A DNA stretch of 64,000 bases from Alphaproteobacteria bacterium (lineage in GTDB: Bacteria > Pseudomonadota > Alphaproteobacteria > Rhodobacterales > Rhodobacteraceae): the NCBI GenBank assembly GCA_030426685.1, contig JAUHYC010000007.1, positions 19,221 to 83,220 on the forward strand, read 5' to 3'. Below are positions 900-43,522 of the stretch, one piece after another. Made by a program: the position numbers and the translations under genes. The notes beneath the pieces were generated by a model. That model was not told where the DNA came from. It worked only from the letters and a program-made list of their open reading frames with translations, and ran no database searches. How positions within the stretch are numbered: the first letter of the stretch is position 1; every line of letters starts with the position of its first letter.

Positions 900-2339
900 A
901 TGCTTGAAAAACGTGATTTCTATATCAACGGCAAATGGGTCGCCCCATCAGCGGCGCATGATTTCGAGGTCATCGACCCCTCGACCGAAGAACCCTGCGC
1001 GGTGATTTCACTAGGCTCCGCGGCGGATACAAACGCCGCCGTTGCTGCAGCGAAGGCCGCTCTGCCCGGTTGGATGGCAACGCCGGTTGAAGAGCGTATC
1101 GCGCTGGTCGAAAAGCTGGTCGACATCTACGCGACGCGGTCCGAGGATCTGGCGCAGGCGATGTCGATGGAGATGGGTGCGCCGATTGATATGGCACGTA
1201 CCCAGCAATCCGGAGCCGGCATCTGGCATCTAAAAAATTTCATCCGCGCCGCCAAGGCTTTTCAGTTCGAACGCCCGCTGGGCGATCATGCGCCCAATGA
1301 CCGGATCATCCATGAGGCGGTTGGGGTGGCTGCCCTGATCACGCCGTGGAATTGGCCGATGAACCAGATCACTCTGAAAGTGGGGGCCGCGGCAATTGCA
1401 GGATGTACGATGGTACTGAAACCATCGGAACAAAGCCCGCTGAACGCGATGATCTTTGCCGAGATGATGGATGAGGCCGGTTTCCCCCCCGGCGTGTTCA
1501 ACCTTGTGAACGGCGATGGCGCGGGCGTCGGCTCTCAGCTGTCGGCGCATCCGGATGTCGACATGATCAGCTTTACCGGCTCCACCCGCGCGGGCACGGC
1601 AATCTCCAAGAATGCCGCCGATACATTGAAGAAGGTGCATCTGGAATTGGGTGGCAAGGGTGCGAATGTGGTCTTTGCCGATGCGGATGAGAAAGCCATC
1701 AAGCGCGGCGTTTTGCACATGATGAACAACACCGGCCAGAGCTGTAACGCCCCCAGCCGGATGCTGGTACAGCGCCCGATATACGAACAGGCTGTCGAGA
1801 CGGCGGCCGAGGTGGCGAACAAGGTCTCGGTCGGGCCCGCCTCGGAAGAAGGCCGCCATATCGGCCCCGTGGTGAATGAGCTGCAGTGGACCAAGATTCA
1901 GGATCTGATCCAGAAAGGCATCGACGAGGGCGCGCGCCTGGTTGCCGGTGGCACCGGGCGGCCCGAGGGGTTGAACAAGGGCTACTATGTCCGCCCCACG
2001 GTGTTTGCCGATGCCAACAACCAGATGACCATCGCGCGCGAGGAAATCTTTGGCCCGGTGCTGACCATGATCCCCTTCGACACCGAGGAAGAGGCCGTCG
2101 AGATCGCCAATGACACGCCGTATGGCCTGACCAACTATGTCCAGACGCAGGACGGTGCCCGCGCCAATCGCATGGCACGGGTGCTGCGCTCGGGTATGGT
2201 CGAGATGAACGGCCAGTCGCGCAGTGCGGGTTCTCCGTTCGGTGGCATGAAGCAGTCCGGCAACGGGCGCGAGGGTGGCGTCTGGGGGCTGGAGGACTTC
2301 CTTGAGGTCAAGGCCGTCGGCGGCTGGGCCGCCGAATAA
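900..2339 (+). CDS. NAD-dependent aldehyde dehydrogenase
   Basis: ITPWNWP, FTGSTRAG, LELGGKG, GQSCNAP (catalytic Cys), EEIFGPV motifs. Confidence 0.95.
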   Translation: MLEKRDFYINGKWVAPSAAHDFEVIDPSTEEPCAVISLGSAADTNAAVAAAKAALPGWMATPVEERIALVEKLVDIYATRSEDLAQAMSMEMGAPIDMARTQQSGAGIWHLKNFIRAAKAFQFERPLGDHAPNDRIIHEAVGVAALITPWNWPMNQITLKVGAAAIAGCTMVLKPSEQSPLNAMIFAEMMDEAGFPPGVFNLVNGDGAGVGSQLSAHPDVDMISFTGSTRAGTAISKNAADTLKKVHLELGGKGANVVFADADEKAIKRGVLHMMNNTGQSCNAPSRMLVQRPIYEQAVETAAEVANKVSVGPASEEGRHIGPVVNELQWTKIQDLIQKGIDEGARLVAGGTGRPEGLNKGYYVRPTVFADANNQMTIAREEIFGPVLTMIPFDTEEEAVEIANDTPYGLTNYVQTQDGARANRMARVLRSGMVEMNGQSRSAGSPFGGMKQSGNGREGGVWGLEDFLEVKAVGGWAAE

Positions 2340-2833: not shown

Positions 2834-3009
2834 GTTTTGCCTCGTTTCCTCGAACGGCGCGAGATCTGGACGGGGTTCGCATTGCCATCCGCGCGCCGGG
2901 AAAGGGCAGCAGATGTGTCAGTAACCGGGTTTCACCAAAGCCAAAGGCCGCGAACGGCAGGAGACCCGAACCTGCCGCGGCTTCTGGCAGCCTCCGGTCC
3001 TTCTGTCAG

Positions 3010-3852
3010 TCAGGCATCCGCATGCGCCGCCTCATAGGCCAGCATGGCGCGTTTGACGGGCAGGCCCCAGTGATAGCCACCCAAGCCGCCGGATTTGCGC
3101 AGGGCGCGGTGACAGGGGATCAGCCAGCTGACCGGGTTGCGCCCTACGGCGGTACCGACCGCACGCACCGCCTGCGGCGACCCCACCCGCTGGGCGATCT
3201 CGGAATAGGTGGTGACCTGCCCCGAGGGGATATGCATCAGCGCTTCCCAGACCTTGATCTGCAGGGGCGAGCCGATCAGATGCAAAGGTGTTTCCGACCG
3301 ATCCGCACCAAAAGCACTGTGTGCCCACGGGTGCAAGCGCTTGGAATCTTCCAAAAATTCCGCCTTCGGCCAGCGTGACCGCATATCCTCCATCGCGGCT
3401 TGCTCACCCGTCTCAGACGCAAAGGCGATGCCGCAGATGCCTTTGTCGGTACCCATGACCAGCGCCGGGCCAAAGGGGCTGTCGAACCAGCCCCAGTAAA
3501 TCGTCAGCCCCTCACCCTTGCGGGCGTATTCGCCGGGGCTCATGGATTCCCATTTCAGGAACAGATCGTGCAGGCGGCCGCTGCCTGAGAGGCCGACGTT
3601 ATGCGCGGTTTCCAGCGTGGTGAACCGCTCGCGCAGCAGCGCCTTGGCATGGCCCAGCGTCAGGTATTGCTGGTAGCGCTTCGGCGATACTCCGGTCCAG
3701 CGCGAAAACAGGCGCTGAAAATGCGCGGGGCTCATGTCCATCTGACGGGCGAGCTCTTCCAGGCTGAGGGTTTCACCGCCCTGGTCGATCAGCTCGATCG
3801 CACGCCGCATAACATTGAAATGATAGCCAGTTTCGGGATTTTGGACGTTCAT
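3010..3852 (-). CDS. ada: AraC-HTH / methylated-DNA-protein-cysteine methyltransferase (Ada-like)
   Basis: MSPAHFQRLF HTH; C-terminal NPVSWLIPCHR alkyl-acceptor motif. Confidence 0.92.
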   Translation of the reverse strand: MNVQNPETGYHFNVMRRAIELIDQGGETLSLEELARQMDMSPAHFQRLFSRWTGVSPKRYQQYLTLGHAKALLRERFTTLETAHNVGLSGSGRLHDLFLKWESMSPGEYARKGEGLTIYWGWFDSPFGPALVMGTDKGICGIAFASETGEQAAMEDMRSRWPKAEFLEDSKRLHPWAHSAFGADRSETPLHLIGSPLQIKVWEALMHIPSGQVTTYSEIAQRVGSPQAVRAVGTAVGRNPVSWLIPCHRALRKSGGLGGYHWGLPVKRAMLAYEAAHADA

Positions 3853-7926: not shown

Positions 7927-10020
<2,094 letters not shown>

Positions 10021-10038
10021 GCCACTGGCCCTGCCGGT

Positions 10039-10647
10039 CTAATCTGCCATGGCCAGCTTGACGCCCAGCGCGCCAAATGCGGTTGCAAAGCACCGCTTGA
10101 TCCATGCCATGACTGAGGGGCGTCGGATGACGTAATCGCGCGCCAGTGCCGCGCAGGCGCCATAGGCGATAAAAACCACAAACGTCATCGCCATGAAGGC
10201 AAGGGCGAGCAACACCAGCGCACCTCCGGCATTTGCGGTGCCAGTTGGCAGAAACTGCGGCAGGAAGGCCAGAAAGAACAGCGACAGCTTTGGATTGAGG
10301 ACATTGATCAACGTGCCGGTGACCGCAATTTTCAGGTAGCTACCAGAAGATTTATCCGTATCGACCTCCATCGCGCCACCATCCCGGACGATCCCCCACG
10401 CCATGTAGAACAGGTACAGGACGCCAAAGTATTTGAGCACCTGAAACGCAAGCACGCTGGTATGCAGCAGGGCTGCAAGCCCGATGATGCTGGCCACGGC
10501 TGCCGGTACTATCCCGAAAGTGCAGCCGATCGCGGCGGCTGTGCTGGCGCGAAAACCACGGCCAAGCCCGACGGCCAGCGTGTAGATCACACCGGTGCCG
10601 GGCAACAGGACCACGATCAACGAGGTCAGAATGAATTCCAATGACAT
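10039..10647 (-). CDS. LysE-family translocator
   Basis: LLPGTGVIY, G-C-T-F-G, INVLNPKLSLFFLAFLPQF. Confidence 0.92.
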   Translation of the reverse strand: MSLEFILTSLIVVLLPGTGVIYTLAVGLGRGFRASTAAAIGCTFGIVPAAVASIIGLAALLHTSVLAFQVLKYFGVLYLFYMAWGIVRDGGAMEVDTDKSSGSYLKIAVTGTLINVLNPKLSLFFLAFLPQFLPTGTANAGGALVLLALAFMAMTFVVFIAYGACAALARDYVIRRPSVMAWIKRCFATAFGALGVKLAMAD

Positions 10648-10710
10648 GCGCTTCCCCTTCAACTCCGGCGCATGCTTTCCGAGTTTCGAAGGCAAGTAAA
10701 GAGTGCCTTT

Positions 10711-11054
10711 TCAACGCTCTTTGTCGCGCGTGTCTTCCGGCACCTGATCCCGGTCGGTCAGGCCATAGTCGCGGCACACGGCGGCCACGCGCAGGCGGTA
10801 GCCTCGAAACAGGCCCGCGCGTCCGCGTGATTGTGCCCCGCGATGTTGCGTCATGGCGCGCCATTCAGCCACCGCCGCCTCATCCCGCCAGAAGGACAGC
10901 GACAAGTATTTTCCGGAGTGGTCAGGCTCTGGAAACGCTCGACCGAGATGAAGCCGTCGACCTTGTCCAGCAGCGGGCGCAGGTCGGCGGCGATGTCCAG
11001 ATAGGTCTGGGTTTCGCCTTCGGCAGGCTCAACTTCAAATATGACTGCGATCAT
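10711..11054 (-). pseudogene. antibiotic-biosynthesis monooxygenase (ABM), frameshifted
   Basis: MIAVIFEVEP...FISVERFQSLTTP continues in another frame as KYLSLSFWRDEAAVAEW; one base missing near 10907-10916. Confidence 0.8.
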
Positions 11055-37541: not shown

Positions 37542-38894
37542 TCACGGATCAGGCGGATCATAGAGCAGATCAGCAATGTCGGAAAAGCGCGAGTCCGGAC
37601 GCGTGAGACCGAGTATTCCCGCGCTGATCCGGCTGGCCCGCGCCGCACCAATCACCGGTTCGGCGAAGGCAGTGTATTTGTCCATTATCTCTTGCCGGCT
37701 CAGCGGCATGTCCGGCCCGCCGCGCGCATTGAGATCGCCGGACCGCAGCAAATCACCGCCCGTGGTTTCAATCTCGACATCTGCCCAGCGCCCCTCCGGG
37801 AACCTTGCGCAATGGTGTTCGGATTCGGTAACGCGGATACGGGACATCACCTGACTGACAGCTGGGTCCGTCAGACCTGCGCCTGAGATATGCTCGACCC
37901 CGATCCGCCCATGGACGGCCTGCACCGCGACGGCAAAGGGCAGAGAATATTGCGCTTGCGATGTGGTCTGAGGCAGGTCCGAGAACAAGCGGGCCGCCTC
38001 GGTGAAACTGCGGATGCGGATCGCAGCGATCTGCTGGTGCGACAGCCTATGCTGCTGCACAATCAGCCGGACACCATCGATCGCGGCATGGGCCCAGCGG
38101 CAAATCGGGTAGGGTTTGATATATTGCTGTTCAGTCTGCCAGATTTGGCCCAGATCGGCCCAAAACGGTGCGGCATCTTCAGCTTCGATGGTGATGGCGG
38201 GTGCTCCGGTAAACCCGCGTTCGGCCAGAACGGCGGATGACAGCCCGACCAATGCCCCCCAGCCTGACCCGTCATGCAACATTGTCGGATTTGCGATTTC
38301 ACGCATCATCTGGCTGCGGGGTCCATGGTATTCGGCAATCCCCAGCGCTTGTCGGAGTTGCGCAGGTGAATGACCGCGCAAACGCGCCGCCATCGCCGCC
38401 ACGCCCAACGCGTTCCAGGCTCCGGAGGTGTGATAATCGCTCACCGTGGCATGTAGCGTCAGACCGGCGCGGCCCGCAATCTCATACCCGGTGATCAGGG
38501 CCGCCAACGCTTCCGGCCCGGTCAGATCAGGCTTGCGCTCAGCCAATGCAGCCAGCACCGGAACAACCGCGACGCCGATATGGCCCTTGACCGGATTAAA
38601 ACCGTCATGGGCATCAAGGTTGTCTGTCTGTGTGGCGGTGGCATAAGCGGCCCCGGCAACGCTGACACGACGTCCATCGAACAACATACGGGCGCTGAAA
38701 TCAGGCTCTAAACTGGCAAATAACAGTGTAGCGGTATCTCGTGCGATCACTCCGGCCTGCATCGGCCCCGCCGCGATCAATACTCCGATTGTGCCCAGCA
38801 GCAGCAGTGCAGCAGCGGAACGTGCGCTTTCGGGCATGTCCTCTGCGGCAGTGTCCAGCGCAAATGCGGCGACGCGATTGAAAGTATCGGTCAT
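37542..38894 (-). CDS. MmgE/PrpD-family protein
   Basis: DNLDAHDG...GH.G, GYEIAGR, YHTSG, YIKPYPICRWAH, QYSLPF. Confidence 0.9.
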   Translation of the reverse strand: MTDTFNRVAAFALDTAAEDMPESARSAAALLLLGTIGVLIAAGPMQAGVIARDTATLLFASLEPDFSARMLFDGRRVSVAGAAYATATQTDNLDAHDGFNPVKGHIGVAVVPVLAALAERKPDLTGPEALAALITGYEIAGRAGLTLHATVSDYHTSGAWNALGVAAMAARLRGHSPAQLRQALGIAEYHGPRSQMMREIANPTMLHDGSGWGALVGLSSAVLAERGFTGAPAITIEAEDAAPFWADLGQIWQTEQQYIKPYPICRWAHAAIDGVRLIVQQHRLSHQQIAAIRIRSFTEAARLFSDLPQTTSQAQYSLPFAVAVQAVHGRIGVEHISGAGLTDPAVSQVMSRIRVTESEHHCARFPEGRWADVEIETTGGDLLRSGDLNARGGPDMPLSRQEIMDKYTAFAEPVIGAARASRISAGILGLTRPDSRFSDIADLLYDPPDP

Positions 38895-41335
38895 TGCGCC
38901 GGCTCCGCCATGAGGGGGCTGGCATCGCGCAGGCGTGCGCCGGAAGGATCAAAAGGCGGTTCAGTCAGAATCCGGGCCTTGTGCGGGCGGCCCAGAACGT
39001 AGATCTCAACCGCGTCACCGGGCCCGGCAACCTCTGGATCTACAAAGCCCAGCGCCAGGGATTTCCCGACCGAATAACCATATGCGCCGGAGGTGACACG
39101 TCCGACCGGCACCCCAACGGGGGTAAAGATTGGCTCACCCCCGGCTGCATCGGCGATATCGGCTTCAACCTCGAAGACCGAAAGAACCTCGCGCGCGGGG
39201 TGGTCCTTGATGGCCAGATAGGCGTCTTTGTGCAGAAACTCCTTGTCGAGCTTGATCAGACGATCCAGCCCAACTTCATGCGGCCAATACTCCTGTGAAT
39301 ATTCGCGACCCCATGAGCCATAGCCCTTTTCGATGCGTAGCGAGCCCAGTGCGCGCGCCCCGACAGGGCCGCCATCAAGCTGCTCTGCCACCTCAATGAG
39401 TGCGGAATAGAGCCTGATTTGGTCATTTTCGGCGCAATGCAACTCCCACCCGAGATCGCCGGTAAAGCTGACGCGGATGGCAAGACAGGTGACACCGGCC
39501 ACCTCAATGGTGGCAGAGCGCATAAAGCGGAAGGCTTCGTTCGACAAATCGGCGTTGGTCAGCCGTTGCAACAGATCGCGAGCCCGAGGTCCGGCGACGT
39601 TGAACCCGGCGATACGGTTTGTTGCGACCTCGAACTCAACACCTTCAGGCCGCTCAATCATGTTGAAAAAGCGCTGATGATAGCGTTCGGCCATACCCGA
39701 ACCGATCATCATATATTCATCTTCGGCAACCATCGTGATGGTGAAATCGCCCGCCACGCCTCCGCGCACAGAGATCAGCGGTGTCAGGCAGGAGCGGCCG
39801 ACCTGGGTAGGAACATGGTTTGCGACAAGGGAATCCAACCAGCCCCGCGCACCTCGGCCTTTGATGACGTAGTTGGCAAAGTTCGAGATATCGATGACGC
39901 CGACGGTCTCGCGCAGCATCCGGACCTCACATCCCACGGGTTCCCACCAGTTCTGGCGAGTGAAACCGTTGGTCTCAACCGCGCCAGGATTGTCTGCGAA
40001 CCATAGGGGATGTTCCCAGCCACAGTTCAGGCCAAAAACGGCACCCAAGTCCTTTTGCAATTCATAAGCGGGACGTGTCCGGGCCGGACGGCCCGCGCTG
40101 CGTTCTTCGTTCGGGAAATGGATCGCAAACCGGTGGGAATACTGGTCCTGTACGCGCGCCTGTGTGAAGGCCTTGTCGGCCCAATCGCCAAAACGTGCCA
40201 AATCCCAGGCGAACATATCGTATTGCGGCTCACCCTCAATCATCCACTGCGCCGAGAGCAACCCCAAACCACCCGATTGCGAAAAGCCGGGAATGATACC
40301 CGTACAGCAGAAATAGTTCTGCAATTCGGGCACCACCCCCCAAATCGCATTGGCATCCGGTGACCAGATCATCGGTCCGTTGATCACCCGTTTGACCCCT
40401 GCGGTGGCGGCAACAGGCACACGTTCGGTGGCGCGGATGACGTTTTCCATGATCCGGTCCAGATCATCCGGAAACAGGTCATGGGCGAAATCCGGCGGTG
40501 TGCCGTTTTCGGCCCAGAACTGCATATCTTTCTCATAAGCTCCGATCAGCAACCCGTTGCCTTCCTGCCGGAAGTAATACTCGCCGTCGCGATCTGCGAT
40601 CGATGGCAGGCGACGGCCCAGCGCTGCAACTTCTTCGATCGCTTCGGTGACGAAATACTGATGTTCGGTGGGTTGCAGGGGCAGCTTGATCCCGGCCATC
40701 GCGGCAACCTCGCGCCCCCAGAGTCCACCCGCATTCACCACCCACTGGGTATGGATATCACCCTTTTCGGTGCGCACAACCCACGAGCCGTCTGGCTGTG
40801 GATCAGTCCCTATCACGGGACAAAACCGTTCAATCGTAGCACCCAGAGCACGGGCACCTGCGGCATAGGCATGGGTCACACCCGATGGATCGACATTGCC
40901 GCCATCGGGTTCGAACATGATGCAGCGAATGTCATCGAACTGCGCCAGCGGGTGTAGTTCTTTGGCCTGTTCGCGGCTGATCTCATAGAAGTTCAGACCG
41001 TAGAACCGCGCTTTGGCCTCTTGCAGGCGAAGCTGATGTTCCCGGTCTTCGGTCTGCGCCAGATAGAGCGAGCCGGACTGAAACACACCGCAGCCCTGAC
41101 CGGTTTCCTTTTCCAGTTCCTTGTACAGGTTCATCGTATAGTGCTGGATACGGGTGATGTTGTTGTTGTCATGCAGGCCGTGGATGTTGGCCGCCGCATG
41201 CCAGGTTGAGCCGCTGGTCAGCTCGTCTCGCTCCAACAGCACCACGTCGGTCCAGCCGAGTTTGGCCAGGTGATAGAGGATCGAGCATCCGACCAGCCCA
41301 CCTCCGATCACCACAGCTTGTGCATGGGTTTTCAT
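38891..41335 (-). CDS. GcvT-family FAD-dependent oxidoreductase (dimethylglycine/sarcosine dehydrogenase-like)
   Basis: GGGLVG, LTSGSTWHAA, HQYFVT, NGPMIWSPD, SLRIEKGY, VTSGAYG. Confidence 0.92.
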   Translation of the reverse strand: MKTHAQAVVIGGGLVGCSILYHLAKLGWTDVVLLERDELTSGSTWHAAANIHGLHDNNNITRIQHYTMNLYKELEKETGQGCGVFQSGSLYLAQTEDREHQLRLQEAKARFYGLNFYEISREQAKELHPLAQFDDIRCIMFEPDGGNVDPSGVTHAYAAGARALGATIERFCPVIGTDPQPDGSWVVRTEKGDIHTQWVVNAGGLWGREVAAMAGIKLPLQPTEHQYFVTEAIEEVAALGRRLPSIADRDGEYYFRQEGNGLLIGAYEKDMQFWAENGTPPDFAHDLFPDDLDRIMENVIRATERVPVAATAGVKRVINGPMIWSPDANAIWGVVPELQNYFCCTGIIPGFSQSGGLGLLSAQWMIEGEPQYDMFAWDLARFGDWADKAFTQARVQDQYSHRFAIHFPNEERSAGRPARTRPAYELQKDLGAVFGLNCGWEHPLWFADNPGAVETNGFTRQNWWEPVGCEVRMLRETVGVIDISNFANYVIKGRGARGWLDSLVANHVPTQVGRSCLTPLISVRGGVAGDFTITMVAEDEYMMIGSGMAERYHQRFFNMIERPEGVEFEVATNRIAGFNVAGPRARDLLQRLTNADLSNEAFRFMRSATIEVAGVTCLAIRVSFTGDLGWELHCAENDQIRLYSALIEVAEQLDGGPVGARALGSLRIEKGYGSWGREYSQEYWPHEVGLDRLIKLDKEFLHKDAYLAIKDHPAREVLSVFEVEADIADAAGGEPIFTPVGVPVGRVTSGAYGYSVGKSLALGFVDPEVAGPGDAVEIYVLGRPHKARILTEPPFDPSGARLRDASPLMAEPAQ

Positions 41336-41642
41336 GGTTCCGCTCTCCTCGTGCAGATCAACGCCTTGTCCCAAAGTCAGCCACAGGTCCGGGGTGGGGT
41401 ATGCTCTGTTCCCGACGCAAAATGTCGGTATTGCTTATCAAAGCGGCGGAAACAGGCGCGGTGTCGGCAGTTTGCCGCCGCTCTCGGCGTTGCGCACGAT
41501 GTCGTGGGCCTCTGCGCATTGAAATGAGGCACAGCGATTCTTTGTTTAAGCAGGAAGCACGAAAATACGTGCCGAATTGGTCGCAAGCGACGGGACAGGT
41601 TGGTTTGAGAGACGGTGAATTCCACCCGAACCGGCGGAAATG

Positions 41643-41676
41643 TTGAAAAAGTTCTTAATATGTTCTATATTTGTTC
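41643..41676 (+). promoter_or_regulatory. sigma70 promoter (TTGAAA-N17-TATATT) overlapped by a double LexA box GTTC-N7-GTTC-N7-GTTC
   Basis: GTTC at 41651, 41662 and 41673; GTTC-N7-GTTC is the alphaproteobacterial SOS box. Confidence 0.85.
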
Positions 41677-41714
41677 CACAAGGATGTCTGAGGTGGAACG
41701 GAGGTATTCGAGCT

Positions 41715-42044
41715 ATGATCAATGCTACCCGTCAAAGCTGGTACGACGCGCCCAGCAACGATTACCACATGCTGCCTGTCACCGACCGGCAAATGCGCTA
41801 TGCCCGGGCGATTGCCGCGAAATCCGCACTTGAGATCCCGGTTGAGGCGCAACGTGACCGTAAATCGCTGTCAGACTGGATTTCGGCACATAAACCGCAT
41901 GATCCATCACCTTTCGCCAACTATCCCACCGGCAAACAGGTCGCCTTTGCCGAGCGAATCTCACGTGGCAAGCGCCGTCCGATCCCGTCTGAGTGTTTTC
42001 GGGACAAGCAGATGATGTCGCGCTGGATTGATCAAAACAAATAG
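41715..42044 (+). CDS. small two-repeat hypothetical protein, probably SOS-induced
   Basis: GGAGG RBS; two ~41-aa repeats (T.[RK]Q..[YF]A..I...IP.E..RD....S.WI); start could be 41769. Confidence 0.8.
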   Translation: MINATRQSWYDAPSNDYHMLPVTDRQMRYARAIAAKSALEIPVEAQRDRKSLSDWISAHKPHDPSPFANYPTGKQVAFAERISRGKRRPIPSECFRDKQMMSRWIDQNK

Positions 42045-42051
42045 GGCCGCA

Positions 42052-42552
42052 TCATTTGCCGTGGTTGCGCGCATAAAGCGCGACAGCGGCAGCAACGAAC
42101 ATGCCCAGCAGGATATAGCCTGTCACCGCTTCGGCCACGGCCAGTCCGCGGCACAGACCGGTTGGGGACATATCCCCGTATCCGACCGTGGTGAAGGTGA
42201 CATACGAAAAATACAGAATATCCGCCGGACCCTGAGCCCCGATGACGCAATGGTCGTTATAGCCAAACGCGCCGTAAACGGCGGCGAACAGGAATGGTAC
42301 GACCTGAATGAAGGATACCCCCATCAGGAATAGCAACCGGCGCGGGGATTCCACCTGTGTCATGTAGTACCACGATTGCGATACCATCCAGATCACCAGA
42401 CCCACCGAGGCAAATGTACCAATCGTTTCGCCTGCGGTGGTCTCGTTCAATCGTGACAAACCGTACCACGCCAAAAAACTGGCCAAAACCAGCCCAAGCG
42501 CCGCCAACAGAGTGGATTTCCATTCTTCCAGAGTTCTGGGTTCTTTGGACAT
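42052..42552 (-). CDS. potassium-channel family protein (pore domain)
   Basis: LYFSYVTFTTVGYGDMSP selectivity filter; four hydrophobic segments. Confidence 0.85.
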   Translation of the reverse strand: MSKEPRTLEEWKSTLLAALGLVLASFLAWYGLSRLNETTAGETIGTFASVGLVIWMVSQSWYYMTQVESPRRLLFLMGVSFIQVVPFLFAAVYGAFGYNDHCVIGAQGPADILYFSYVTFTTVGYGDMSPTGLCRGLAVAEAVTGYILLGMFVAAAVALYARNHGK

Positions 42553-42616
42553 CTGCGCTCCGTCATGCCTGCCTGATCGCAATCATCCAATTTCCGGCAG
42601 GGCCTGCAAGCGGATT

Positions 42617-43522
42617 TCAGTCCGACCCCAGATGTTCCTCGCCGCGCGCGCGGGCCAATTGAATCTGTTTCTGGCGCTCTCGGAAGCGCTTCTTGTCCGC
42701 GTCCGATGTCTCATGGATGCACTGATGGCACGACACCCCGTGTTCATATTCCGGGCGTTTCACATCCTCGGGCAGGATCGGGCGGCGGCAGCCATGGCAC
42801 AGCTTGTGCGGCCCCTCGACCAGCCCATGACCGACCGAGACGCGGTTGTCGAACACGAAACACTCGCCCTGCCAGGCGCTGTCTTCGCGCGGCATTTCCT
42901 CAAGATAGCGCAGGATGCCGCCTTTCAGGTGATAGACATCCTCGACCCCCTGCCCCAACAGGTAGTTGGTGGATTTCTCACAACGGATGCCGCCGGTGCA
43001 AAACATCGCAACGCGTTTATTGTGGAACCGGTCCTTGTTCTCCTCCCACCAGGCGGGAAAATCGCGGAAACTGGCCGTGTTAGGGTCGATTGCGCCCTCA
43101 AACGTGCCAATCGCAACCTCGTAATCATTGCGCGTGTCGATCACCACCACATCATCCGAGCGGATCAGATCGTTCCAGTCCTCCGGCTCGACATAGTTTC
43201 CAACGCTGGCGCGCGGGTCGACATCGGGCTGGCCCATTGTCACGATCTCTTTCTTCAGGCGCACCTTCATCTTACCGAATGGCGGTTGGTCCGAGACCGC
43301 CTCTTTCCACTCCAGCCCCTCGCAGCCCGGCAGGGAACGGATATGGGTCAGCACCGCATCAATCCCGGCGCGAGGACCGGCGATTGTGCCGTTGATCCCC
43401 TCCTGCGCCAATAGCAGGGTGCCTTTGACGGATTGCGTGCGGCAGAGCTCCAGCAGCGCAGGGCGCAGCGAGTCCGGATCGGGGAACCGTGTGAAGTGGT
43501 AGAGGGCAGCGATTGTGTACAT
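42617..43522 (-). CDS. trhO: rhodanese-domain tRNA uridine hydroxylase (UPF0176)
   Basis: GTLLLAQEGINGT, RLKKEIVT, DTRNDYE, FCTGGIRCEKS, GGILRY. Confidence 0.9.
   Translation of the reverse strand: MYTIAALYHFTRFPDPDSLRPALLELCRTQSVKGTLLLAQEGINGTIAGPRAGIDAVLTHIRSLPGCEGLEWKEAVSDQPPFGKMKVRLKKEIVTMGQPDVDPRASVGNYVEPEDWNDLIRSDDVVVIDTRNDYEVAIGTFEGAIDPNTASFRDFPAWWEENKDRFHNKRVAMFCTGGIRCEKSTNYLLGQGVEDVYHLKGGILRYLEEMPREDSAWQGECFVFDNRVSVGHGLVEGPHKLCHGCRRPILPEDVKRPEYEHGVSCHQCIHETSDADKKRFRERQKQIQLARARGEEHLGSD

Follow-up and report, generated by a model that had tools for sequence, protein, structure and literature searches.

A candidate SOS gene of the Rhodobacterales whose two-repeat product is related to topoisomerase III tails

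Is the small gene at positions 41715 to 42044 in the stretch of DNA studied here (64 kb, 64,000 nt, hereafter called the window) controlled by the SOS repressor LexA, and, if so, what could its 109-residue product be doing in the cell? A preliminary description of the window had singled it out as a candidate new SOS gene for an uncharacterised protein of two repeats. That proposal is supported by the comparisons reported here, with the layout of a LexA-type box placed upon a promoter being kept across orthologues far beyond chance, and there is good support for regarding the gene as a new candidate member of the alphaproteobacterial SOS regulon. The features upon which the argument is built are the following, in coordinates of the window.

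41643 to 41648, + strand: −35 hexamer TTGAAA, found in the sequence and by a promoter scan, with cTTGAAA/TTGAYW at the same position in nearly all orthologous loci.
41651 to 41665, + strand: SOS box 1, GTTCttaatatGTTC, an exact match located inside the −35/−10 spacer.
41662 to 41676, + strand: SOS box 2, GTTCtatatttGTTC, an exact match with the −10 hexamer within the spacer of the box.
41666 to 41671, + strand: −10 hexamer TATATT, found in the sequence and by the promoter scan, after a 17-nt spacer from the −35.
41678 to 41714, + strand: predicted 5′ untranslated leader, with the transcription start placed at about 41678–41680 from the position of the −10.
41700 to 41704, + strand: ribosome-binding site GGAGG, ten nt upstream of the ATG at 41715.
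41715 to 42044, + strand: coding sequence of 109 aa plus stop (42042–42044), with a product of 12.7 kDa and pI 9.9.

The near-consensus sigma-70 promoter that had been described, TTGAAA-17-TATATT, was indeed present at 41643–41671, matching the consensus at 10 of 12 positions and being the sole promoter-like site in the scanned region of 41000–42700. The reading of GTTC-N7-GTTC-N7-GTTC over this promoter (41651–41676) as two overlapping SOS boxes was likewise confirmed, with GTTC half-sites at 41651–54, 41662–65 and 41673–76, placed 11 bp apart, and with the half-site at 41662–41665 being common to both GTTC-N7-GTTC boxes. When both strands of the window were scanned these two were the only exact boxes found. 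Two exact boxes per window is the chance level (1.87 expected); for the exact triple the expectation is only 0.01 per window, and 1 of 100 shuffles reached it. Boxes with one mismatch numbered 57 compared to 46 expected, which is roughly chance level, and the window thus holds no second credible SOS site. The GTTC motif was reportedly first defined on recA and lexA of Rhodobacter sphaeroides, itself a member of the Rhodobacterales, by Tapias et al. in 2002. GTTC-N7-GTTC is the published LexA motif of the Alphaproteobacteria (PMC9578287, PMC8565304, PMC12700426), and a GTTC-type weight matrix has been used for LexA sites in the roseobacter D. shibae (PMC6473078). The D. shibae sites are given there by locus tag only, and no orthologue of the present gene was traced among them.

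A 7-bp perfect inverted repeat was also seen in the predicted leader (GTTCCAC at 41673–79 and GTGGAAC at 41693–99), having the third GTTC half-site as its left arm and a right arm that abuts the ribosome-binding site, and being kept in loci of the KLH11 and R. lacuscaerulensis type. The fold energy of this leader hairpin was no better than that of shuffled sequences (z −0.73), and we therefore claim no structured RNA.

With regards to the gene itself, the mechanically called open reading frame starts at an ATG at 41640, within the promoter, and would encode 134 aa; the real start is the ATG at 41715, with all homologues beginning at about this Met. The span of 41643–42044 given earlier for the gene comprises the promoter plus the coding sequence, and the product was confirmed, using the start at 41715, as a basic protein of 109 aa (pI 9.92; 19 Lys and Arg versus 12 Asp and Glu). 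Among 27 Ruegeria orthologues the differences at codon positions 1, 2 and 3 numbered 379, 347 and 1414, respectively, a pattern indicating a protein-coding gene under purifying selection. The closest relatives were found in Ruegeria species and in Rhodobacteraceae bacterium KLH11 (93% identity), so that the window can be assigned to a Ruegeria-like roseobacter.

The conservation of the operator was judged from a scan of one genome per species, which gave at least 566 loci, and the best 80 of these, from about 20 Rhodobacterales genera, were taken for comparison. The genera included Ruegeria, Falsiruegeria, Tropicibacter, Aliiroseovarius, Litoreibacter, Amylibacter, Aliishimia, Oceaniovalibus, Marinibacterium, Loktanella, Harenicola, Sedimentitalea, Roseovarius, Sulfitobacter, Octadecabacter and Pseudorhodobacter, and others. 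An exact GTTC-N7-GTTC was found in 77 of the 80 orthologous loci, overlapping the core promoter and lying within 180 nt before the ‘LP-T-x-Q’ start of repeat 1, and two of the three exceptions (L046 and L075) had a box with one mismatch at the same place. The density of boxes upstream of the gene was 6.25/kb compared to 0.0105/kb in the rest of the same loci, counting both strands, hence a difference of about 600-fold. Conservation upstream of the gene was limited to the −35 (cTTGAAA/TTGAYW), the GTTC tetramers, the −10 (TATNTT) and the ribosome-binding site, with the remainder diverged, and GTTC stood directly before TATNTT in nearly every orthologue having either box 1 or the triple.

Three layouts could be discerned among 90 loci, chromosomal and plasmid-borne taken together. 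The triple as found in the window was seen in 14 of them (KLH11, some Ruegeria, Falsiruegeria, Tropicibacter and Sulfitobacter), a single box in the −35/−10 spacer, followed by the −10, in 26 (including all Paracoccus-type plasmid copies), and a single box having the −10 in its own spacer in 47 (most Ruegeria; 10 assigned by script and 37 by eye). All three have in common the half-site immediately before the −10, and the ‘double box’ of the window is the union of two alternative single-box solutions. The earlier reading that a double box implies tight LexA repression must hence be divided; the boxes stand, but the tightness was over-read, as a half-site is shared and the triple is found in only those 14 loci. 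The extra box registers may nonetheless raise the occupancy by LexA.

The DNA around the gene is a different matter. Its neighbours in the window (the dehydrogenase and channel genes described below, a rhodanese-like gene and pncA) are kept only in Ruegeria (L001–L037) and in one further locus (L043), and when the two nearest genes on each side were clustered, no recurrent neighbour was found outside of Ruegeria beyond close relatives. Ten neighbours sampled outside of Ruegeria encoded transporters, homogentisate dioxygenase, a MiaB-type radical-SAM enzyme, MORN and RTX proteins and one TraG_N protein. With flanks and neighbours unconserved, the box evidently travels with the gene, which is an autonomous single-gene unit having its LexA-boxed promoter as its only constant companion.

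Using tblastn against PLSDB, the gene was found on 155 plasmid records, of which 76 are typed as conjugative; 73 of the records were from Pseudosulfitobacter, 17 from Paracoccus (including P. denitrificans PD1222 plasmid 1, PDEN_RS25350) and 11 from Sulfitobacter. The arrangement cTTGMTTTT-GTTC-N7-GTTC-TATNTT was located 40–45 nt before the ATG in 9 of 9 informative plasmid copies, or 9 of 10 when counting an Octadecabacter copy that lies beside insertion sequence (IS) elements and has a decayed first half-site. That the operator is kept on chromosomes as well as plasmids of many genera, with its register relative to the −10 shifting, argues for recognition by a universal host repressor rather than for a promoter element or a regulator specific to one mobile element.

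On MOBP/MPF_T plasmids of Pseudosulfitobacter, Celeribacter and Actibacterium (L082, L091 and L093) the gene is found at the edge of a block that encodes an ArdC-like single-stranded DNA (ssDNA)-binding/zincin protein, DUF6330, DUF3768, a large ParB-like protein and an unnamed, divergently oriented neighbour of 155 aa. The gene adjoins an anti-restriction gene and DUF736 on P. aminophilus pAMI8 (L086), and on three other plasmids a large strawberry-notch or DEAD-box helicase gene together with toxin–antitoxin modules. Genes of these kinds serve conjugative elements in settling into a new host, and the block has the appearance of a region for conjugative establishment or anti-defence. Conjugative entry of ssDNA triggers the SOS response, and with a LexA-gated gene located in an establishment block, the plasmid copy could thus plausibly have an entry-induced function.

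A separate observation concerns the plasmid pOA238_160 of Octadecabacter arcticus (L081), on which a gene at 9447–10799 annotated as ‘type VI secretion protein ImpB’ encodes a Y-family polymerase of the ImpB/MucB/SamB type (IMS, IMS_C), located among IS elements at a distance of 3 kb from the family gene. The region before this polymerase gene showed no LexA box, which made the gene unusable as a positive control.

A positive control was provided by a locus from an uncultured Rhodobacteraceae genome (L055), having an exact box at 1755–1769 on the minus strand in the promoter context cTTGCCAttt-GTTCacctattGTTC, located 12 nt before the ATG. The gene behind it, found two genes from the family gene and showing the same promoter layout, encodes an MmcB-like protein of 146 aa (1300–1743, minus strand; PF06319 with an expectation value, E, of 2.9e-48), and mmcB is SOS-regulated in Caulobacter (PMC9578287). 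This was the only box elsewhere in the compared loci that had a promoter context, with the others being located in coding sequence and having GC-rich spacers. Taken together, and as judged from sequence comparisons, we consider it very probable that the gene is under LexA/SOS control.

What, then, could be the nature of the product? Its architecture, with the helices as predicted by AlphaFold2 using an alignment of 25 family sequences across genera (A1) as input, is the following.

41715 to 41771, + strand: N-terminal residues 1–19, predicted as disordered (predicted local distance difference test, pLDDT, 44–58), with an NDYH-x-LP motif.
41772 to 41894, + strand: repeat 1, residues 20–60, with helices at 24–37, 43–47 and 49–59 and a pLDDT of about 90.
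41922 to 42041, + strand: repeat 2, residues 70–109, with helices at 73–86, 92–95 and 98–108 and a pLDDT of about 95.

The claim of a two-repeat product could be confirmed by self-alignment, the two units of 39–40 aa aligning without gaps over 38 residues with 34% identity and 55% positives (E 2e-7), and two units were also found in 190 of 233 small homologues. In A1, the invariant residues of repeat 1 were L20, Q26, A30, A34, P42, R49, S53, W55 and I56, and those nearly invariant in repeat 2, where conservation within the family is highest, were Q75, V76, A79, E80, R84, K86, R87, P91, C94, F95, M101, W104, I105 and N108, with the basic patch R84-x-K86-R87-R88 being kept. The AlphaFold2 model had a mean pLDDT of 83.9, with each unit built as helix(14)-loop-helix(5)-helix(11) and the two units thus predicted as similar three-helix modules; a predicted template modelling (TM) score of 0.50 suggests that their orientation to each other is not fixed. 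The NDYH-x-LP motif is kept in chromosomal copies across genera and is missing from shorter copies (95–104 aa) and from plasmid copies; one possibility is that it acts as a short linear motif for interactions.

The repeat had been said to recall the C-termini of topoisomerases, and this turned out to be a matter of real homology. A phmmer search against 1.84 billion representatives gave 287 matches, of which ten were proteins of 660–964 aa aligning by their last 80–100 residues (E 4e-14 to 6e-8). All ten had Toprim and Topoisom_bac domains, with nine best matching DNA topoisomerase III models and one topA. Their tails carry two to four tandem copies of PS-x-KQ-xx-FA-xx-IA-xxx-G-xx-hP-x-E ... 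S-x-WID-x-NK, continuing up to the very C-terminus. Using BLASTP, the window protein and the tail of one of these enzymes (P0174) showed 36% identity over 73 aa (E 2e-14), with repeat 2 of the window protein aligning to the last repeat of this topoisomerase III. The P0174 cluster is annotated as ‘DNA topoisomerase-3’ in Aliiroseovarius crassostreae and in Phaeobacter piscinae, in the latter on plasmid pS26_106, and full-length matches including the tail were also found on Paracoccus and Thalassospira plasmids. When the same 39-residue consensus was counted by regular expression, 399 units were found in small proteins, 22 in topoisomerase tails and 88 in multi-repeat proteins. From these alignments, the window repeat is almost certainly homologous to the topoisomerase III tail. 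The window protein lacks the Toprim and Topoisom_bac core, and is hence a stand-alone relative and not itself a topoisomerase.

The helical repeat is not among the described type IA tails, and the domain is uncharacterised. A survey from 2022 of type IA C-terminal domains contains only Topo_C_ZnRpt, Topo_C_Rpt, zf-GRF and zf-CCHC, and the known type IA C-terminal domains bind DNA or RNA (PMC9369019). None of the Pfam tail families was matched in the repeat-bearing topoisomerases, in which Pfam found only Toprim and Topoisom_bac.

Searching the PDB with the AlphaFold2 model using Foldseek gave no match at E 0.001 or better. The top rows were the DUX4 double homeodomain, tandem engrailed homeodomains and a SNAPc subunit, at E of about 1–2, with Myb repeats also near E 1, and a further row was the C-terminal domain of Red-beta in complex with the SSB tail peptide (probability 0.23, E 5.9, TM score 0.42 on the target); these rows are leads only. 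In the BFVD the sole significant match was A0A5B9N7N5, an uncharacterised 183-aa protein of Aeromonas phage 4L372XY (E 1e-4, 25% identity, 93 columns), and several 40-residue matches at 1.1 Å root mean square deviation were unnamed phage proteins, suggesting that the module circulates also in phages. A tblastn search of the protein against phage genomes gave no match. As the phage protein is itself uncharacterised, it was rejected as a functional clue. A sequence profile search of the PDB gave only a mitoribosomal S4 protein at E 2, which was also rejected.

That the protein is uncharacterised, as had been stated, was borne out by its lack of any Pfam or NCBIfam match and by the annotations of its relatives. 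A single-sequence search gave 98 homologues and a profile search 2268 clusters, all of them either unnamed or called ‘hypothetical protein’. The window protein matched no family of Pfam or NCBIfam, and the 25 aligned members none of Pfam, beyond noise even at E up to 10; library matches such as TfoX_N and DUF7511 (Pfam, NCBIfam and PHROGs) had E of 0.006 or worse and were dismissed as noise. In particular, no Pfam or NCBIfam profile for GyrI-like, SulA, SidA or other inhibitor families was matched. The family was found nowhere as a member of a LexA regulon in the literature searched or in the source annotations, although a curated regulon database may list an orthologue.

In total, sequences of the family form more than 2200 clusters, and the gene was found at more than 566 loci in genomes and on 155 plasmid records, with several copies in some genomes, such as on two plasmids of Sulfitobacter SK012 and on two contigs of Sedimentitalea todarodis. 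The SOS-boxed gene is specific to the Rhodobacterales and their plasmids. Outside of this order, a 170-aa homologue with three repeats (L087–L090, gene at 3001–3513) was seen on at least 24 metagenomic contigs with a GC content of about 48%, always with an LGT (prolipoprotein diacylglyceryl transferase) gene followed by an SNF2-family helicase gene on one side and, on the other, a gene whose unannotated product has about 730 aa. Larger multi-repeat proteins, P0135 (405 aa) and P0122 (289 aa), contain four to six copies of the 39-aa unit. The former, having an N-terminal segment resembling a presequence, stems from a marine eukaryote transcriptome (MMETSP), and its origin suggests that the module is also found in eukaryotic algae or associated sequences.

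Overall, the explanation that we find best, and hold to be reasonably probable, is that of a LexA-gated single-gene SOS unit, the product of which binds nucleic acid through its repeat modules. In the unstressed cell LexA would occupy GTTC-N7-GTTC, in the −35/−10 spacer or over −10/+1, thereby keeping RNA polymerase off a strong sigma-70 promoter. After DNA damage, accumulation of ssDNA would lead to RecA-stimulated self-cleavage of LexA and a free promoter, and with the plasmid copies such release would probably occur also upon single-strand entry of the plasmid into a recipient. The product would then bind nucleic acid through its conserved basic patch, by analogy with the characterised type IA tails, and the free protein would be found at DNA gaps or sites of damage, or at incoming plasmid DNA, serving either as a stand-alone DNA-binding or DNA-protecting factor or as an occupant of the sites, or the partner, that a topoisomerase III tail uses. 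Nucleic-acid binding as such is proposed tentatively, because the characterised type IA tails bind, the R-x-K-R-R patch is invariant and the pI is 9.9.

Several observations weigh against this explanation. Stand-alone homologues with two or three repeats from other lineages (L087–L090 and L096–L099) lack the alphaproteobacterial LexA box, so that the SOS link cannot be extended beyond the Rhodobacterales, and the repeat-bearing topoisomerase III gene of pS26_106, the one such gene examined, likewise has no LexA box in front of it. Among public sequencing runs the sequence was found only in metagenomic DNA contigs and in none of the RNA runs. A direct repeat with 11-bp spacing is also the geometry of sites for regulators of the OmpR/PhoB type and the CtrA type. 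With the middle half-site being shared between the overlapping boxes, two LexA dimers are unlikely to bind simultaneously in the usual manner, and such joint occupancy must be considered doubtful. As for the product, DNA binding is proposed with no significant structure or sequence match in the PDB (Foldseek and profile search), and the helical repeat is unrelated to the zinc-ribbon and Topo_C_Rpt tails, the DNA-binding role of which may not transfer.

Alternative explanations were considered along the same lines. That the GTTC repeats would not be LexA sites at all, being instead sites of another regulator with 11-bp direct repeats or merely a conserved promoter, with a gene that is not damage-inducible, could draw upon the direct-repeat geometry common to response-regulator sites and upon the finding that chance alone would yield two exact boxes in 64 kb. 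We regard this as very improbable, however, given that the motif equals the experimentally defined LexA site of the Alphaproteobacteria, that the same layout precedes an mmcB homologue and that chromosomes and plasmids from more than 25 genera have retained the motif despite shifts in its register versus the −10. Most improbable of all, in our view, is an SOS-induced cell-division inhibitor, as an analogue of SulA, SidA or YneA so far missing in the Rhodobacterales. Such inhibitors are typically small, SOS-boxed and lineage-restricted genes (PMC9578287), as is this one, but the protein has no membrane segment and no similarity to a known inhibitor, and both the homology to topoisomerase tails and the several plasmid copies per genome fit poorly with that function. 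A secondary transcription factor or nucleoid protein, with tandem modules resembling helix-turn-helix (HTH), Myb or homeodomain units that would bind specific double-stranded DNA and reprogram transcription late in the SOS response, agrees with the basic nature of the protein and with the tandem three-helix DNA binders among the top Foldseek rows. Those rows had E of about 1 or worse and TM scores of 0.26 or less, however, no HTH family of Pfam was matched, and a sequence-specific regulator would be odd as a topoisomerase tail in two to six repeats, wherefore we find this possibility improbable.

Closer to the topoisomerase link lies the idea of a topoisomerase III modulator, in which the free tail would compete with, or recruit, a repeat-tailed topoisomerase III through a docking site, on DNA or a partner protein, that both would use, thereby tuning decatenation or the processing of recombination intermediates during the SOS response or plasmid establishment, in principle comparable to SbmC/GyrI. 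The type IA core was the only catalytic domain fused to the repeat among the matches examined, repeat-tailed topoisomerases are found on plasmids of the same order, and the small gene also lies within plasmid establishment regions. Against this stand the finding that none of the loci examined has a topoisomerase gene next to the small gene, the missing LexA box at the pS26_106 topoisomerase III gene and the absence of a GyrI-like or other inhibitor domain from the protein; we consider a modulator unlikely. A protein-binding adaptor, with the three-helix module binding the C-terminal tail of SSB, or RecA, and modulating SSB and RecA traffic in the manner of PsiB or a member of the SSB interactome, would be in line with the weak likeness to the Red-beta domain with its SSB tail peptide (probability 0.23, TM score 0.42), with ssDNA-handling genes such as ArdC in the plasmid context and with E. 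coli topoisomerase III, which is said to work together with SSB and RecQ (Suski and Marians, 2008). That Foldseek match is not significant (E 5.9), however, and as no sequence similarity to a known SSB- or RecA-binding domain was found, we judge an adaptor to be quite unlikely. With low probability, finally, the 39-residue repeat could be an undescribed targeting module for ssDNA intermediates, recognising either the DNA or the SSB tail, that is used by topoisomerase III of mobile elements and that in the Rhodobacterales and their conjugative plasmids was set free as an SOS-triggered factor gating ssDNA gaps or incoming plasmid DNA. Such gating would for example consist of shielding ssDNA from topoisomerase III and RecA, or of handing it over to them.

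Returning to the window and to the LexA-gated single-gene unit, the gene stands alone on the plus strand between two unrelated genes on the minus strand.

38891 to 41374, − strand: gene of the dimethylglycine/sarcosine dehydrogenase type (DAO, FAO_M, GCV_T), the upstream neighbour.
42052 to 42582, − strand: small ion-channel gene (Ion_trans_2), the downstream and convergent neighbour.

The stop of the SOS-boxed gene (42042–44) lies 7 nt from the stop end of the ion-channel gene (42052), and no terminator-like site was found between the two (42042–42054). An induced transcript would probably read antisense into the ion-channel gene.

LexA-regulated genes are a known class; the candidate added to it here encodes a topoisomerase III tail module, not described before, as a protein standing by itself. 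SOS regulons outside of E. coli and Caulobacter are poorly charted, and lineages studied in this regard have yielded new repair and checkpoint functions (SidA, MmcB and BapE of Caulobacter). Here a large unannotated family of an ecologically dominant marine order is found with one of the cleanest conserved LexA operators, and it opens a way to study a previously undescribed tail domain of plasmid-borne topoisomerase III, with a soluble protein of 109 aa being far easier to purify, crystallise and assay than a full topoisomerase III. The ArdC and anti-restriction neighbours on conjugative plasmids suggest a testable link between SOS signalling and plasmid establishment, and the notion of an ssDNA-targeting module would, if true, connect the SOS response with plasmid establishment.

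Compared with known systems, the gene shares with the alphaproteobacterial LexA regulon, as in Caulobacter crescentus and Rhodobacter sphaeroides (recA, lexA, imuA and mmcB), the same direct-repeat operator placed over the core promoter. It differs in having three half-sites in two overlapping registers in the window and a regulation deduced from sequence, and in that the family has not been reported for that regulon, according to the literature searched and the source annotations. SbmC/GyrI is an SOS-induced gyrase inhibitor of E. coli, and together with the SOS control of parE and parC it exemplifies LexA-controlled genes that act upon topoisomerase function. The analogy is solely conceptual, there being no relation in sequence or fold to SbmC/GyrI, and the target would here be of type IA and not of type II. 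SOS control of parC/parE has been described (PMC8565304).

Among families in Pfam, DUF3072 was matched by two relatives, P0122 and P0178, over about 33 residues (E 2e-4 to 6e-4) at 20–21 bits, which is below the gathering score of 27.5 bits, and by neither the window protein nor the 25 aligned members. DUF3072 is an uncharacterised family, and no paper mentioning it was found in the literature searched. The Topo_C_ZnRpt (zinc ribbon) and Topo_C_Rpt tails are likewise small tandem modules following a catalytic core, with those that have been characterised binding ssDNA (PMC9369019), whereas the window repeat is predicted as all-helical, being neither a zinc ribbon nor of beta structure, has neither a Cys4 nor a GxxGPY-type motif and gave no Pfam match. 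Homology was seen with the topoisomerase III tails of Phaeobacter piscinae (pS26_106, WP_052463934.1) and Aliiroseovarius crassostreae (WP_055190811.1), in which the homologous 39-residue unit is found in tandem at the extreme C-terminus, ending with ...WIDxNK, and which share with the window protein the consensus PS-x-KQ-xx-FA-xx-IA...P...S-x-WID-x-NK. Compared to these tails, the window protein has a LexA-boxed promoter of its own and, in repeat 2, a conserved ECF motif and a basic patch (KRR) that is more pronounced.

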